DNA from: Escherichia phage vB_EcoM_LNA1
Strand: one strand, 5' to 3'
Length of the DNA: 64,000 nucleotides
Sequence record: MZ311863.1
Shown here: in pieces, positions 5,658 through 61,462 of the stretch
Layout of the letters: the number at the start of each line of letters is the position of its first letter
Position numbering within the stretch: position 1 is the stretch's first letter
The notes under the pieces: generated by a model
The model's database searches: none
What the model was told of the DNA's origin: nothing
Seen by the model: the letters and a program-made list of their open reading frames with translations, nothing else
Made by a program: the position numbers and the translations under genes

Positions 5658-6185
5658 CCTTTGCTGTACCAGTTACAAGTGTTTCTTTCCTCAAACCTAA
5701 GTTTTTTGAAGCTTGTCCATACATCCAGTCAGCAATTGCTTTCATATCCTGTGTCATACCCTCTGGACATTCCCAACTATTTTCATCGTGATATGCCAGA
5801 AGTAACCTTGCTCCGATAGCTGGTTTTCGAGCATTCAGTTTTGTCAGGCCATCTTCACAGGCTTTTCTTGCTGCTAGGTTGATGGCCTCATTCTGAATCT
5901 GTGCTTCCGAACTCATCAGGAGGTAGTTCAGGAGTTTATGTGGAGATTTGCACCATATCCATGCTCCAGCGACCCTGATATAACCACCTTTAGCAATTGA
6001 AGAATTCTTCCCAAAAACCTCTTCCAGAGCCTTTTTAGACGCCTTAAAATCGGCTTCTAAGCTGTCAAGTAACTTCTTAATCTTCGGTAGACGCATATAG
6101 TAAGTCTGCTTAGTCAATGCACCTTCTTCTGTAGATGATGCCTTGATAGTTTTTGCAAACTTCTCATCACCTGCACCGAACAATA
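5629..6185 (-). CDS. DNA polymerase (family A) exon 2: end of motif B through motif C
   Basis: begins (L)FGAGDEK matching T7 gp5 YGAGDEK of motif B; contains LLLAYHDE motif C; ORF track start is TTG, so not an independent start. Confidence 0.7.
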
Positions 6186-56803: not shown

Positions 56804-58219
56804 ATGAGCGAATTATTCAAACATGCGCACCTTCATGCAGGTCGAACTGAAAATGGTGCTGTAAACCATACTTCATCAATGTCTGCTCTTGTGGACTTTT
56901 ACAAAGCTGCTGGTTCAAGCCGTAGCAATGTAGAAATCTTACCAGACTTGTTCTACAAAGCTTTGCGTGAGGATGTTGATGTTGCAGTTCGTATTTTGCT
57001 TCACATGCGAGATGTACGAGAAGGTATGGGTGAGCGTAAAGCCTTCAGAACTGTTTTACTTAAAGCAATCGAAGATAAAGTTTTAGAGCCTACACAGGTT
57101 CTTCGTATTATGGATAAGATTGCAGAACTTGGTCGTTTTGATGACTTCAAAATCTTTGTAGGTACTCGTTTCGAAACAGATGCCTTCAAGCATTTAGAAG
57201 CAGCATTACTAGACCCTGCAACAGCAGGTTTGGCAGCCAAGTGGTTACCACGAGTCAAACCACGTCATAAGCAGTTTGTAAAACGTTTCTGCAAGTTTGC
57301 CAACTTGAGTGAGAAAGAGTACCGCACACTGTTGTCTGCACTGTCTGATACAGTTGAGCAAAAAATCTCTGCTAATGAGTTTGGTAAGATTGACTACAGT
57401 AAGATTCCTTCACTTGCTGCTGCACGTTACCAAAAACTCTTTAACCGTAAAGATGGGGAACGTTACAAAGCTTACATCGAGTCCCTCTCAAAAGGTGAGG
57501 CTAAGATTAATGCTGGTGCTGTTTACCCATACGATGTGATTAAATCTATCAAGTATGGTAATGCAGATGTTGCTAATGAGCAGTGGAAAGCACTACCAAA
57601 CTGGATGGCAGAAGGTGAAAACATCCTGTGTATGACTGATGTTTCAAGCTCAATGTCTTGGGTGAATCTTGGCTCAATTACTGCCCTTGATATTGGTGTA
57701 TCACTTGCCTTGTATGTAGCAGAACGCAATACAGGTTGCTTCAAGGATGAGTTAATGGTTTATTCAACAAACCCTCACTTCATCGAACTGAGTGGTGATT
57801 TACGAAACCGTCATCGTCAGGTGATGCGACATGTTGAATATGGCTCAACTAACTTACAAGCAGCTTTTGACCGCATTCTTGAGGTAGGTAAGAGAAACAA
57901 CTTGACTCAGAAAGATATGCCAAGTAAGCTTATCATCTTCTCTGATATGGAGTTCAATCAGGTTGATGGTGCAAATGGTCGTACAAACTTTGAAGCAATT
58001 CAGAGTAAGTACAAAAAAGCTGGATACGAAATGCCACAACTAGTATTCTGGTACTTAGCAAACCGTAATGGTACTTGCGAAGTGTCTGTTAAGGATAATG
58101 GTGTAGCAATGGTATCGGGGTTCTCTCCAGCCACTTTAAAAGCTCTGCTTGGTGGTGAGAAGTTTGACCCAATCAGCGTAATGCTTAAAGCAGTAATGAT
58201 TGACCGTTATATCTGGTAA
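56804..58219 (+). CDS. vWA (MIDAS) domain protein, possibly TROVE/Ro-like
   Basis: 471 aa; C-terminal half has MIDAS motif DVSSSMS and downstream IIFSDMEFN; N-terminal helical domain unassigned. Confidence 0.45.
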   Translation: MSELFKHAHLHAGRTENGAVNHTSSMSALVDFYKAAGSSRSNVEILPDLFYKALREDVDVAVRILLHMRDVREGMGERKAFRTVLLKAIEDKVLEPTQVLRIMDKIAELGRFDDFKIFVGTRFETDAFKHLEAALLDPATAGLAAKWLPRVKPRHKQFVKRFCKFANLSEKEYRTLLSALSDTVEQKISANEFGKIDYSKIPSLAAARYQKLFNRKDGERYKAYIESLSKGEAKINAGAVYPYDVIKSIKYGNADVANEQWKALPNWMAEGENILCMTDVSSSMSWVNLGSITALDIGVSLALYVAERNTGCFKDELMVYSTNPHFIELSGDLRNRHRQVMRHVEYGSTNLQAAFDRILEVGKRNNLTQKDMPSKLIIFSDMEFNQVDGANGRTNFEAIQSKYKKAGYEMPQLVFWYLANRNGTCEVSVKDNGVAMVSGFSPATLKALLGGEKFDPISVMLKAVMIDRYIW

Positions 58220-58238: not shown

Positions 58239-58267
58239 TTGACAATGTGTTTAATACCCTTTAATAT
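58239..58267 (+). promoter_or_regulatory. sigma70-like promoter
   Basis: TTGACA-17 nt-TAATAT; a second weaker TTGACA element at 58330. Confidence 0.45.
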
Positions 58268-58385
58268 GTTCTACATAGAGACGAAATGAGAGCTTTTCTA
58301 AGATACTGAAAAATATTTTAAAAAAGTTCTTGACAATCACTAAAAAATAATGTTAAAGTGGTTACATAGAGTTTGAAAAGTTTAT

Positions 58386-58552: not shown

Positions 58553-58630
58553 GACAGAAGACCAATTACAGCAAACTTAATCTTATTCATCTGAAGGTAA
58601 ATCGGACAAAGAAGAGATTTGGTCTGGTCA
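58553..58630 (+). repeat. inter-tRNA repeated element (copy a)
   Basis: gACAGAAGACCaaTTACAGCAA ... tttGGTCTGGtca; same 5' and 3' motifs recur in 3 further units. Confidence 0.5.
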
Positions 58631-58638
58631 TTAAGAAT

Positions 58639-58715
58639 TGCGGGTATAGAGAAAGGGCGTCTCACATGTCTCATTAGCATGGTATCGGCAGGTTCGACTC
58701 CTGCACCCGCCTCCA
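58639..58715 (+). tRNA. tRNA with CAU anticodon (Met or Ile2-type)
   Basis: D-arm gaga-aagggcg-tctc, anticodon arm catgt-ctcatta-gcatg, T-arm gcagg-ttcgact-cctgc; acceptor pairing imperfect, exact ends uncertain. Confidence 0.5.
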
Positions 58716-58720
58716 AATTT

Positions 58721-58790
58721 TACAGAAGACCGTTTACAGCAATATTTATTAAATTTTTAGCGGAAAAATTGAAAGATACGGTCTGGTAAT
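58721..58790 (+). repeat. inter-tRNA repeated element (copy b)
   Basis: tACAGAAGACCgtTTACAGCAA ... acGGTCTGGtaat. Confidence 0.5.
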
Positions 58791-58799
58791 ACTAAATAT

Positions 58800-58876
58800 G
58801 GTTAGGAAGCACATAAGGTATGTGCGGTCGCCTGTTAAGCGAATGGCACAGGGTTCGAATCCCTGACTAACCGCCA
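58800..58876 (+). tRNA. tRNA-Asn (GUU)
   Basis: anticodon loop ctgttaa, T-arm caggg-ttcgaat-ccctg, acceptor ggttagg/actaacc, CCA encoded. Confidence 0.65.
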
Positions 58877-58885
58877 AATTTAAAT

Positions 58886-58973
58886 GTGTCGTTATCCCGT
58901 AGATGGTAGCGGTGGGGACTGTAAATCCCTTGTCATTGAGACTCGGTAGGTTCGACTCCTACACGGCACACCA
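58886..58973 (+). tRNA. tRNA-Tyr (GUA), long variable arm
   Basis: 88 nt; anticodon arm gggga-ctgtaaa-tccct, T-arm gtagg-ttcgact-cctac, acceptor gtgtcgt/acggcac. Confidence 0.6.
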
Positions 58974-58994
58974 ATTTTGATAGGGCTACTTAGC

Positions 58995-59030
58995 CCCTCC
59001 CTTAAAGGGTTCTTACGAGTATCCTTTAAA
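58995..59030 (+). repeat. palindromic element AAGGGTTCTTACGAG..TCCTT (copy 1)
   Basis: cccttaaagggttcttacgagtatcctttaaagg; second copy at 62443. Confidence 0.5.
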
Positions 59031-59032
59031 GG

Positions 59033-59112
59033 AGCAGAAGACCAAATACAGCAAGTTACTTAAAATTTCAAGCCAATTTAATTTTGAAAAATTTAAAACT
59101 TGGTCTGGCTCA
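59033..59112 (+). repeat. inter-tRNA repeated element (copy c)
   Basis: gagCAGAAGACCaaaTACAGCAA ... ttGGTCTGGctc. Confidence 0.5.
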
Positions 59113-59120
59113 ACAAATTT

Positions 59121-59258
59121 ACAGAAGACCGTTTACAGCAAAACTTAAACAATCTATTTCTCGGTAAAGAAAAGGCGAAGATTCGACTCCTTCACTCGGC
59201 AGATGTCGAGTTGGTGTAATGGTAGCACTTAAGATGATAAACAACGGTCTGGTAATTA
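59121..59258 (+). repeat. inter-tRNA repeated element (copy d) containing tRNA-like fragments
   Basis: ACAGAAGACCgtTTACAGCAA ... T-arm-like gaagattcgactcctt and hairpin actcggcagatgtcgagt ... acGGTCTGGtaat. Confidence 0.45.
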
Positions 59259-59401
59259 CCTTTGTAGGTGAGCTATTAAGCTTACCTGTGAGTATGCGAC
59301 CACAAAGGGTGAAAGGGTAAATTCTAGATTTAAACCCAAAAAGGCACATCACTACAGACCTTAAGCAAGTCTGGGTAGCTTATCTACAAAGATAATTTAA
59401 T

Positions 59402-59636: not shown

Positions 59637-59651
59637 ATTTCAATAAAGTTG

Positions 59652-59680
59652 TTGACATTGAGATGTGACTACTTTATACT
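59652..59680 (+). promoter_or_regulatory. strong sigma70-consensus promoter
   Basis: TTGACA-17 nt-TATACT; followed by about 200 nt with no ORF before next tRNA. Confidence 0.55.
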
Positions 59681-59884
59681 AACCTTAGTTTTCGTTGCGT
59701 AGCGTCTATTTTGCAAATTTAAAATAAATGCAAACGACAATGTTTTTCTGGCAGTAGCTTAATAGGCTAAACACCAGTGAGGTCTTCCAATCCCTCATCA
59801 AAGAATTTGGCGTACTCGCCCACGGTATGGTTAATAAGGTGGGCATCTTTAAGGGCTTTCTAAGAGAGTCTTTAAAGATAATTA

Positions 59885-59966
59885 CGGGGCGTATCTCAGC
59901 TGTCTTCTAAACAGCCGTTAACCGAGTAAGTGGAGTATGCGGGTTCGAGTCCTGCCGCCTCGACCA
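59885..59966 (+). tRNA. atypical tRNA-like gene (possible Arg UCU-type hairpin)
   Basis: good 7-bp acceptor cggggcg/cgcctcg and T-arm gcggg-ttcgagt-cctgc with CCA, but internal arms non-canonical; hairpin gctgt-cttctaa-acagc looks like an anticodon arm. Confidence 0.35.
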
Positions 59967-60115
59967 ATTTAGTTAGCAGATTACTTAGACGACCTAAGCG
60001 GGTCTTCCTGTAGGGAGGTGGTCTGTATCTCATGTTTTCCAGAACATGTAAATAATCTGAGAAGGGGCTTTACAGTGTTGAGATAATACGGTAAGCTTCG
60101 AATTATAGTTTTAAT

Positions 60116-60200: not shown

Positions 60201-60605
60201 ATGAAACTTTGTAGAAAATGTTCTCAAGAAAAGCCTTTAAGCTGCTTTCATAAAAGGGGTAATGGCTATCAGTCTGCTTGCAAAGATTGTAAAGCTAAGT
60301 ACTCAGCAAAGAGATACAAAGAAGACCCTACTTATAAAGCAAAAAGAAAAGTTAGGGCAAAATATGACAAAAAGAGGAACAGAGAGTTCCTTAGTAGATA
60401 TAAAAAGTTTTGCAAATGCAGGATGTGTGGCGAATCTGAGCCAGTAGCTTTGGATTTTCATCACTTAGACCCTAAAGAGAAAGATTTTGCTCCAAGCAAT
60501 CTTAAAACTTACTCTAGAGGCACTATTAAGCGTGAAGTCCGTAAGTGTGTTGTGCTTTGTTCAAACTGTCATAGGAAAGTTCATGCAGGACTGTTAAGTA
60601 TTTAA
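60201..60605 (+). CDS. HNH endonuclease inside tRNA cluster
   Basis: 134 aa; Zn-ribbon CRKC...CKDC and DFHHLDP...CSNCHRKVH HNH motif. Confidence 0.6.
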   Translation: MKLCRKCSQEKPLSCFHKRGNGYQSACKDCKAKYSAKRYKEDPTYKAKRKVRAKYDKKRNREFLSRYKKFCKCRMCGESEPVALDFHHLDPKEKDFAPSNLKTYSRGTIKREVRKCVVLCSNCHRKVHAGLLSI

Positions 60606-61371: not shown

Positions 61372-61462
61372 TCAGAGGTCAAGTGAAAGACCGCTGGTGT
61401 CAACTGAAGACCGTAACAAATTCCACGGAGTTGAGTTAGCGGCACAACTTCAGACCTCTTTC
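61372..61462 (+). ncRNA. candidate structured non-tRNA element
   Basis: terminal inverted repeat cagaggtc...gacctct; contains ctGAAGACCGTaACAaA related to the inter-tRNA repeat motif. Confidence 0.3.

Follow-up and report, generated by a model that had tools for sequence, protein, structure and literature searches.

What are the repeated elements that stand between the first tRNA genes of Escherichia phage vB_EcoM_LNA1, and with what do they work? The stretch of this genome analysed here, 64,000 nucleotides of sequence record MZ311863.1 and called the window in what follows, comes from a Felixounavirus, that is, a phage of the Felix O1 type, with 264 phage records matching it at 80–99% identity, and it carries 24 tRNA genes, all on the + strand, between 58386 and 63556. 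Four units with common ends and different interiors are interleaved with the first of these tRNA genes, and ahead of the tRNA cluster, on the same strand, there is the gene of a 471-residue protein (56804–58219) which is modelled with the fold of Ro60. We consider it quite probable that the four units encode small non-coding RNAs that partner this Ro60-like protein and form a divergent counterpart of the Y RNAs, and the whole system is best read as one of the Ro60/Y RNA type whose protein branch is missed by the TROVE sequence models. The Ro60 fold of the protein was already known from a 2024 preprint, where these RNAs do not appear; what is new here is the RNA module, which is not in Rfam as such, together with three widespread size classes of candidate partner RNA.

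A preliminary description of the window had reported four units sharing a start motif, closed by GGTCTGG and with ends able to pair, and this proved exact. The start motif CAGAAGACC-N3-TACAGCAA (pattern CAGAAGACCNNNTACAGCAA) occurs without any mismatch at 58555, 58723, 59035 and 59122 on the + strand, against a chance expectation of 0.17 matches even at three mismatches, and four matches were reached in 0 of 100 shuffles. GGTCTGG closes each of the four units, and the ends pair as AGACC(AA/GU/GUU) with (UU/AC/AAC)GGUCU, forming helices of 7–8 base pairs (bp) whose inner pairs show compensatory differences between the four paralogues. Counted from the first to the last paired base, with the 3' G after the helix adding 1 nucleotide (nt), unit 1 of the short class spans 58559–58625 (67 nt; 58626 with the G) and is built as AGACCAA-U-UACAGCAA, a 44-nt interior and UUGGUCU-G; unit 2, also short, spans 58727–58784 (58 nt; 58785 with the G) as AGACCGU-U-UACAGCAA, a 35-nt interior and ACGGUCU-G; unit 3, the last of the short class, spans 59039–59106 (68 nt; 59107 with the G) as AGACCAA-A-UACAGCAA, a 45-nt interior and UUGGUCU-G; and unit 4, of a tRNA-like class, spans 59126–59250 (125 nt; 59251 with the G) and is closed by an 8-bp terminal helix of AGACCGUU with AACGGUCU, all four being on the + strand. 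The units were also said to fill every gap between tRNAs 2 and 6, which is not so: one lies in the Glu-Met gap, one in the Met-Asn gap and two in the Tyr-Lys gap, and the 9-nt Asn-Tyr gap is empty. In public records these stretches are either unannotated or placed under doubtful "hypothetical protein" calls, and in the window and 10 relatives Rfam contains no curated family for the units, with matches to Dicty_Class_I_RNA and YrlA that are sub-threshold only.

The search of related genomes used two samples. The first comprised 80 viral contigs encoding relatives of the protein at 39–100% identity, 75 of them not from Felixounavirus (888 kb, both strands), and the second, independent one comprised 80 bacterial and archaeal genome contigs with relatives at 33–43% identity. 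The units were modelled with a covariance model, R1, made from 24 short units in an alignment called A3, which was used instead of a MAFFT alignment of the full-length short units that misaligned the 3' strands; pairs were counted on a separate fixed-register alignment, A2, of 42 distinct units. In the window itself R1 gives 42.7, 49.9 and 45.6 bits to units 1, 2 and 3, all three being R1 training sequences, besides a partial match on unit 4, and nothing else in the 64 kb at E < 0.05.

In the 80 viral contigs, exact TACAGCAA concentrates beside the protein gene on its coding strand, and pairs of copies spaced by about 60 nt are frequent. On the gene's strand and no more than 1.6 kb from the gene there are 84 occurrences, 68 of which have an in-register closing helix of at least 7 bp, and everywhere else, on both strands, there are 51 occurrences, of which only 6 have such a helix (Fisher p = 8e-16). 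R1 gave 75 matches at E ≤ 1 in the 75 viral loci, all on the strand of the gene and nearly all within about 1.5 kb of it, and 39 of these loci have a match at E < 0.01, many being sources of the training set and 21 not. The 80 genome contigs yielded 65 further matches, none of them off the gene's strand and most of them a short way upstream of the gene. Together, the 155 other loci have 140 matches, every one on the gene's strand and almost all beside it. Some of the matches in the viral loci carry variants of the motif that the pattern search had missed, namely UUCAGCAA, AACAGCAA, UUCCGCAA and UACAGCAU. In 9 of 20 loci checked, units are present without any tRNA within 6 kb, and therefore the suggestion that the motif is a processing signal or a by-product of tRNA flanks is ruled out.

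All these RNAs share one module, in which a terminal helix, 7–8 bp long, is followed after its 5' strand by one spacer nucleotide, the single-stranded octamer UACAGCAA, the interior, the 3' strand of the helix and a G. Over the 42 units, which had been selected for having the helix, both A-U and U-A occur at pair 1, pair 2 is always G-C (42/42), pair 3 is G-C or A-U in 41/42 with a single U-A, and pairs 4–7 covary freely, with 3–5 pair types each, including three G-U cells. Not imposed by the selection are the G-C at pair 2, the 3' G, an A-rich 5' flank and the octamer profile, which is U in 94% and A in 85% of the units, then C A G C A A at 98–100%. The 3' strand ends with C in 100% and U in 83% of the phage units, followed by G in 96%, as in the GGUCU-GG of the window. 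Between these fixed ends the interior falls into a short class (units of 46–68 nt, A/U-rich, often with 1–2 further AGCAA(U) repeats), a medium class (90–135 nt, either tRNA-like or with the common core CCUUUCUGGAGGGGAAAGCAAAAACUCGCC) and a long class (164–251 nt), and in close relatives the ends may be identical with the interior replaced outright, as in unit 1 of locus L005 compared with unit 1 of the window.

The protein accompanied by these units bears the Pfam domains DUF2828 and DUF7788 and belongs to phrog_850, annotated "RNA-binding protein"; its open reading frame (ORF) ends 340 nt before unit 1, and the units lie 340–1030 nt downstream of it on the same strand. Its AlphaFold2 model, made with 20 homologues, has a predicted local distance difference test score (pLDDT) of 85 and a predicted template modelling score (pTM) of 0.86, and the 11 best PDB matches of this model are all Ro60/TROVE structures aligned over the full length, with E from 1e-8 to 9e-7 and TMq of 0.42–0.64. 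At the top are Xenopus and human Ro60, Deinococcus Rsr, the Ro60 of Thermus phage phiLo and an entry titled "Trove domain", and isolated von Willebrand factor A (vWA) domains rank after the Ro60/TROVE proteins. A D-x-S-x-S motif of the metal-ion-dependent adhesion site (MIDAS) type (D279, S281, S283) is invariant in the 20 homologues. In the model, the protein thus has the Ro60 fold, a TROVE ring together with a vWA domain.

This protein family is very large, with 8,648 cluster representatives (50% identity) at E ≤ 0.001 distributed in phages, giant viruses and cellular genomes, and its fold also occurs in protist-infecting giant viruses, among them a Pithovirus, a Marseillevirus, CroV and ChoanoV1; among the best 120–150 protein matches listed, every one with a named source is phage or viral. 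Literature found under DUF2828, PF11443 and UCP015417 consists of plant and tardigrade papers only. The 471-residue protein is probably the orthologue of Bas63 gp130, with which it shares the protein family, the virus genus and the position at the head of the tRNA array, and which was reported to be Ro60-like and to counter Ppl (PhageMaP preprint, 10.1101/2024.10.10.617714). The authors of that work also proposed nearby Y RNAs, guessing them among the annotated tRNA genes; the inter-tRNA units, their module and its wide distribution are not described there (10.1101/2024.10.10.617714).

How close do the units come to true Y RNAs? Canonical phage and bacterial Ro60 genes adjoin Y RNA genes (PMC4201824; PMC12135203), and the known pairs of Ro60/Rsr with Y RNAs (YrlA/YrlB of Salmonella, Yrn1 of Deinococcus, Yrl1/Yrl2 of phiLo; RF02553) have a protein made of a TROVE ring and a vWA domain, which is the case here by fold. 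As in those systems, the protein gene has one or more small RNA genes on its own strand at a distance of no more than a few kb, the RNAs are closed by a helix of their 5' and 3' ends (7–8 bp in all four window units), they have a modular build with a variable effector part, and a single RNA per genome, here unit 4, carries a tRNA-like domain whose arms follow each other as V, T, closed acceptor and D; units 1–3, like YrlB, have no such domain. The usual Y RNA criterion of lying less than about 4 kb from Ro60 on the same strand applies to the units only if the fold-level likeness of the protein is accepted. There are also clear differences: the DUF2828/DUF7788 protein cannot be recognised as TROVE by its sequence; the candidate binding site is a plain helix plus the single-stranded UACAGCAA, and not a bulged helix with GNCGAA or GGUCCGA; the units of this phage are interleaved with tRNA genes; and several relatives have one unit in the protein gene's leader, just before the ribosome-binding site. 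Of the three readings offered in the preliminary description, structured RNAs similar to Y RNAs, degenerate tRNA genes and miniature mobile elements, it is the first that stands, on account of the Ro60-fold gene nearby on the same strand, the linkage of the module to such genes in two collections and the YrlA arm order of unit 4.

The tRNA-like interior is exclusive to unit 4 among the window units. After its octamer (59134–59141) come a V hairpin at 59157–59172 (UUUCU-CGGUAA-AGAAA), a T arm at 59177–59193 (GAAGA-UUCGACU-CCUUC), a closed acceptor-like hairpin of 7 bp at 59194–59211 (ACUCGGC-AGAU-GUCGAGU) directly after the T arm and followed by UG, and a D arm at 59214–59228 (GUGU-AAUGGUA-GCAC), all on the + strand; the T-arm-like and acceptor-like fragments noticed earlier in this largest unit are therefore both present, and a D arm besides. 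This is tRNA geometry in which a loop closes the acceptor stem and the terminal helix replaces the anticodon stem, the same layout that was described for YrlA by Chen et al. (PMC4201824). Relatives of unit 4 carry the canonical T arm GAAGG-UUCGAUU-CCUUC, and minimum free energy folds give the same four-hairpin layout in the Felixounavirus copies of unit 4 and in the unrelated units of loci L025 and L046. In an alignment of unit 4 orthologues from Felixounavirus, Suspvirus and Mooglevirus, 96.6% of the cells pair; in the acceptor-like helix 100% of the cells are paired, and both bases differ in 3 of its 7 pairs among these three Ounavirinae genera. The T and D arms are uninformative on covariation because they are invariant in this alignment. 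On the tRNA-like parts of other loci, the Rfam YrlA model gives 39.2 bits (E 4e-5) for L025 and 26.7 bits for L072, both below the gathering score of 69.

Several points weigh against our reading and should be kept in mind together. On the protein side, Pfam finds only DUF2828 and DUF7788 in the 471-residue sequence, with no TROVE even at E ≤ 10, the family profile finds no Ro60 match among PDB sequences, and the kinship to Ro60 is one of fold only, at an identity of about 13% to the Ro60/TROVE structures matched. On the RNA side, the known Ro60-binding motif (GNCGAAN0-1G/CGAA in bacteria, GGUCCGA in animals) is absent from all four units; Rfam YrlA (RF02553) does not match unit 4 or its L003 orthologue at E ≤ 10; with the tools used, about 24 of the 80 viral loci show none of the units; there is some circularity in the percentage of paired cells of the terminal helix, since having the helix was a condition for a unit to be chosen; and the single-sequence folds, which we did not use as evidence, are no stabler than shuffled ones (z from -0.8 to -1.8). 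Finally, the expression of the units and their binding by the protein are predictions from linkage, module and fold, and the recruitment of effectors and the link to Ppl are drawn from analogy and one preprint.

Other explanations must be considered besides a trans-acting partner of the protein. The units might act only in cis within a long transcript, as operators or as stability or processing elements, and not as released RNAs, and this would fit the leader position found in at least 10 relatives, where the end of a unit and the start codon of the protein gene are separated by 13–25 nt and the ribosome-binding site follows the unit directly (..CCU-gaaAGGAaa..AUG), some of these units being mini-hairpins of just 32–48 nt, as well as the units within 30–40 nt after the stop codon in many loci. 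We still regard an exclusively cis function as unlikely, since in the window two promoter-like sites separate the gene from the units, which stand 340–1030 nt downstream of it among tRNAs that need excision, and since the 2–4 copies have elaborate and conserved interiors, some with tRNA-like domains or with cores of 95–250 nt. A cis role is compatible with a partner role and may hold for the leader copies, whose position suggests that the protein regulates the translation of its own mRNA by feedback and is also indirect support for its direct recognition of the module. More doubtful again is that the units are small RNAs independent of the Ro60-like protein, such as decoys for host nucleases that target tRNAs or base-pairing regulators, linked to it by shared regulation only. 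Phage tRNAs are often seen as counter-defence, the unit cluster sits among phage tRNAs, unit 4 mimics the upper half of a tRNA and the binding of units by the protein is only predicted, all of which speak for such independence; however, the linkage extends over relatives of 33–48% identity, unrelated phage types and tRNA-free loci, always on the same strand, and a conserved helix with a fixed octamer is typical of a protein-binding site and not of an antisense seed coevolving with its target.

The two remaining readings of the preliminary description are, in our estimate, both very improbable, and to the same degree. That the units are decayed tRNA genes or rearrangement fragments in the tRNA cluster is suggested by the T-arm, acceptor-like and D-arm sequences of unit 4 and by the pseudo-tRNAs that some annotators have marked in the cluster, but ARAGORN calls no tRNA in any unit, the Rfam tRNA model misses the window units and, in the L003 orthologue of unit 4, matches no more than a T-arm fragment (12.4 bits), units 1–3 contain no tRNA parts at all, and the pseudo-tRNAs annotated in phage D1-2 are other genes and not the units. 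Moreover, the arms of unit 4 are permuted (T, closed acceptor, D) and under selection, as seen from the compensatory changes of the acceptor-like helix. As for miniature inverted-repeat mobile elements spread within the tRNA cluster, the terminal inverted repeats of 7–8 bp and the several copies, whose number varies from 2 to 4 among Felixounaviruses, are what such elements would present; against this, copies of one locus in other genomes have unrelated terminal helices (L069 has four different ones), the 140 model matches all share one orientation beside one gene, no target-site duplications were seen, no unit-model match exists elsewhere in the 64-kb window at E < 0.05, and the G-U pairs in the helices indicate pairing in RNA, on one strand only.

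If the units are indeed partner RNAs of the Ro60-like protein, they would be co-transcribed with the tRNA cluster from sigma-70-like sites within 58239–58359. The two matches in question (58239–58267 and 58330–58359, + strand) agree with the consensus in 10 of 12 hexamer positions each and lie ahead of the first tRNA, and they are weak evidence of promoters because the number of such matches in the window is not above that in shuffles. The units would then be freed by the processing of the flanking tRNAs and trimmed back to the helix, and the protein may recognise the helix together with UACAGCAA, as Ro60 does the conserved stem of Y RNAs. The variable interior would be an adaptor or a gate, by analogy with Y RNAs, as when PNPase is tethered in Deinococcus and YrlA is recognised by tRNA enzymes (PMC4201824). 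In unit 4, the tRNA mimic formed by the T arm stacked on the closed 7-bp acceptor helix, plus the D and V arms, could recruit or decoy tRNA-handling enzymes or nucleases, and the role of the short units would be to occupy or to regulate the protein, as is thought for YrlB-type RNAs. The complete particle may act in RNA surveillance or decay during infection, thus aiding the phage against host defence, and in those relatives with leader units the binding may feed back on the protein's own translation.

The only other signal that Rfam gave for units 1–3 came from a very different place, the Class I RNAs of dictyostelids (Dicty_Class_I_RNA, RF01414), with 20.1 bits for unit 2 and 19.7 and 15.3 bits for the others; the best phage unit reaches 30.7 bits, which stays below the gathering score of 41.5. 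Class I RNAs are about 60 nt long and have a 6-bp helix joining their ends, variable in sequence with compensatory changes and with an invariant 5' G; the motif CCUUACAGCAA adjoins the 5' strand, with U3, C6, C9, A10 and A11 nearly invariant, the interior is variable, and the 3' end is CUGU, its C pairing with the 5' G (PMC7919456). They were concluded to be unique to Dictyostelia by Kjellin et al. in 2021 (PMC7919456). A model made exclusively from 21 Class I RNAs of four dictyostelid species, R2, was run on the window and the 75 viral loci (952 kb, both strands), and each of its top 28 matches falls on an R1 unit and on the strand of the gene, with a best score of 29.0 bits (E 1e-4), ten matches at E < 0.01 and the first off-target match at rank 29 (E 0.26); unit 2 of the window scores 18.9 bits (E 0.08). 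In the 80 genome contigs, the top 19 R2 matches are on the + strand near the gene, 16 of them at the positions of R1 units, with a best score of 28.5 bits (E 7e-5).

The two kinds of RNA agree in length (58–68 nt in units 1–3 compared with about 60 nt), in a terminal helix of 6–7 bp whose sequence varies with the pairing kept, and in an invariant helix G, which phage units have at the second helix position in 47/47. The motif (U)UACAGCAA stands right after the 5' strand, UACAGCAA corresponding to Class I motif positions 4–11 and being exact in 4/4 window units; over the phage units C6, C9 and A10 are found in 100%, A11 in 98% and U at position 3 in 55%, positions 1–2 being bases of the helix. 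In both, the interior is variable and A/U-rich, the 3' strand ends in C and is followed by UG, the genes are clustered, and occasional long members have inserted structured modules. Among the latter, asu_can_20 contains a perfect T arm and, directly behind it, a closed hairpin of 9 bp, similar to the upper half of a tRNA, and ppa_can_99 a T-arm-like hairpin; the insert of DdR-66 matches E. coli 23S rRNA over 25 nt at 96%, in all seven operons, in a stretch that we take to be the L1-stalk region, and the insert of DdR-67 is similar by look. The phage members, for their part, bear tRNA-like domains or whole tRNAs, so that the grafting of translation-RNA mimics onto the module is shared as well. 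The differences are a spacer of 0–1 nt between helix and motif in phage units vs. 2–3 (CCU) in Class I, phage genes with bacterial-type promoters vs. the DUSE element, and the fact that the sole protein shown to bind Class I RNA is the RNA recognition motif (RRM) protein Rnp1A.

We found no link of Class I RNAs to Ro60, TROVE or phages in the literature searched, and motif searches in part of the dictyostelid proteome files of Kjellin et al. gave nothing relevant to a DUF2828 protein. It is conceivable, with a chance that we place slightly under even, that phage units and Class I RNAs are one family or have converged on one protein-binding module, Class I RNAs being then the Y-RNA-like partners of a DUF2828/TROVE-type protein; their shared ancestry or shared partner is offered here as a hypothesis of that same tentative standing and not as a finding. 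Phages, eukaryotes and giant viruses of protists all have members of the protein family, so the RNA-protein pair may go back a long way or may have been passed on by horizontal transfer.

Felix O1-type phages have a wide use in typing and therapy, and the results put a name to DNA in their tRNA clusters that is conserved and unannotated. They provide candidate RNA ligands, with a defined helix and octamer module, for a very large uncharacterised protein family, one member of which already has a counter-defence phenotype. They would also extend the Ro60/Y RNA principle, that is, a ring protein, an RNA with an end helix and a modular mimic of translation RNAs, to a branch that TROVE searches have missed. 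If the proposed relation is true, Class I RNAs, which are abundant and developmentally regulated and whose mechanism has been unexplained since 2004, would be partners of a DUF2828/TROVE-type protein, and the question of their function would become a concrete one, namely the search for this binding partner.

Some minor observations concern the units of other loci. Units with the core CCUUUCUGGAGGGGAAAGCAAAAACUCGCC, of about 95–135 nt, are located at L007 5276–5370, L008 3133–3232, L012 149–280, L018 1265–1373, L028 5734–5828 and L033 5674–5777, and long units (e.g., L009 7471–7720) start with GGAUCG-N-UACAGCAAAAAGUAC; neither kind has an Rfam family in the loci scanned, L007, L028 and L009 among them. 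Short units in L014, L015, L019, L022, L030, L052 and L069 repeat AGCAA(U) once or twice after the main UACAGCAA, and these extra repeats could be further contact sites of the protein. In L045, the unit at 5734–5833 (AGGUUAG-U-UUCAGCAA ... CUAACCU-G) encloses a complete tRNA-Thr(UGU), called by ARAGORN at 5753–5824. The cyanobacterial small RNA NsiR1 is matched at L047 7924–7978 with 37.7 bits and at L066 7928–7982 with 38.6 bits, for a gathering score of 39, and both matches overlap the 3' end of a long unit and extend beyond it. Mini-units of 32–48 nt ahead of the AGGA site are found at L012 1764–1795, L018 2859–2890, L007 5954–5986, L053 5907–5943, L080 5739–5772 and elsewhere, and some longer units likewise end 13–25 nt before the start codon of the Ro60-like gene. 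Three loci have a phage tmRNA gene at a distance of a few kb or less from the Ro60-like gene, at L066 11715–12132, L067 9696–10185 and L029 1317–1767. Small stable non-tRNA RNAs are reportedly also made in the tRNA cluster of phage T4, where species 1 and 2 (rnaC/rnaD) are said to be interleaved with the tRNAs and to come from the same precursor; to our knowledge, T4 has no DUF2828 gene.

Within the window, a possible fifth copy of the unit, ACAGACCTTAAGCAAGTCTGG, is seen in the sequence at 59354–59374 on the + strand, collapsed to a 5' ACAG-ACC, AGCAA and a 3' GTCTGG with no interior; its membership is uncertain, and R1 does not report it. The motif at 61395 that the preliminary description had taken as related belongs to a separate hairpin (61372–61462) that R1 leaves unmatched up to E = 10. 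This hairpin, between tRNA-Thr and tRNA-Val, contains GAAGACCGTAACAAA (about 61405–61419), folds with -30.7 kcal/mol (z -3.5) and is kept at 95–100% in four other Felixounavirus contigs. Long non-tRNA spacers occupy 59637–60115, with a weak tmRNA-like match at 59694–59883 (17 bits) and a match to the tRNA-Sec model at 59884–59963 (23 bits), the latter having a T arm and a CCA end and no ARAGORN call. Also within the tRNA cluster is an ORF for an HNH endonuclease at 60201–60605 (phrog_2255, E 6e-45), and the content of the cluster in relatives varies around this ORF, which suggests rearrangement driven by a homing endonuclease.

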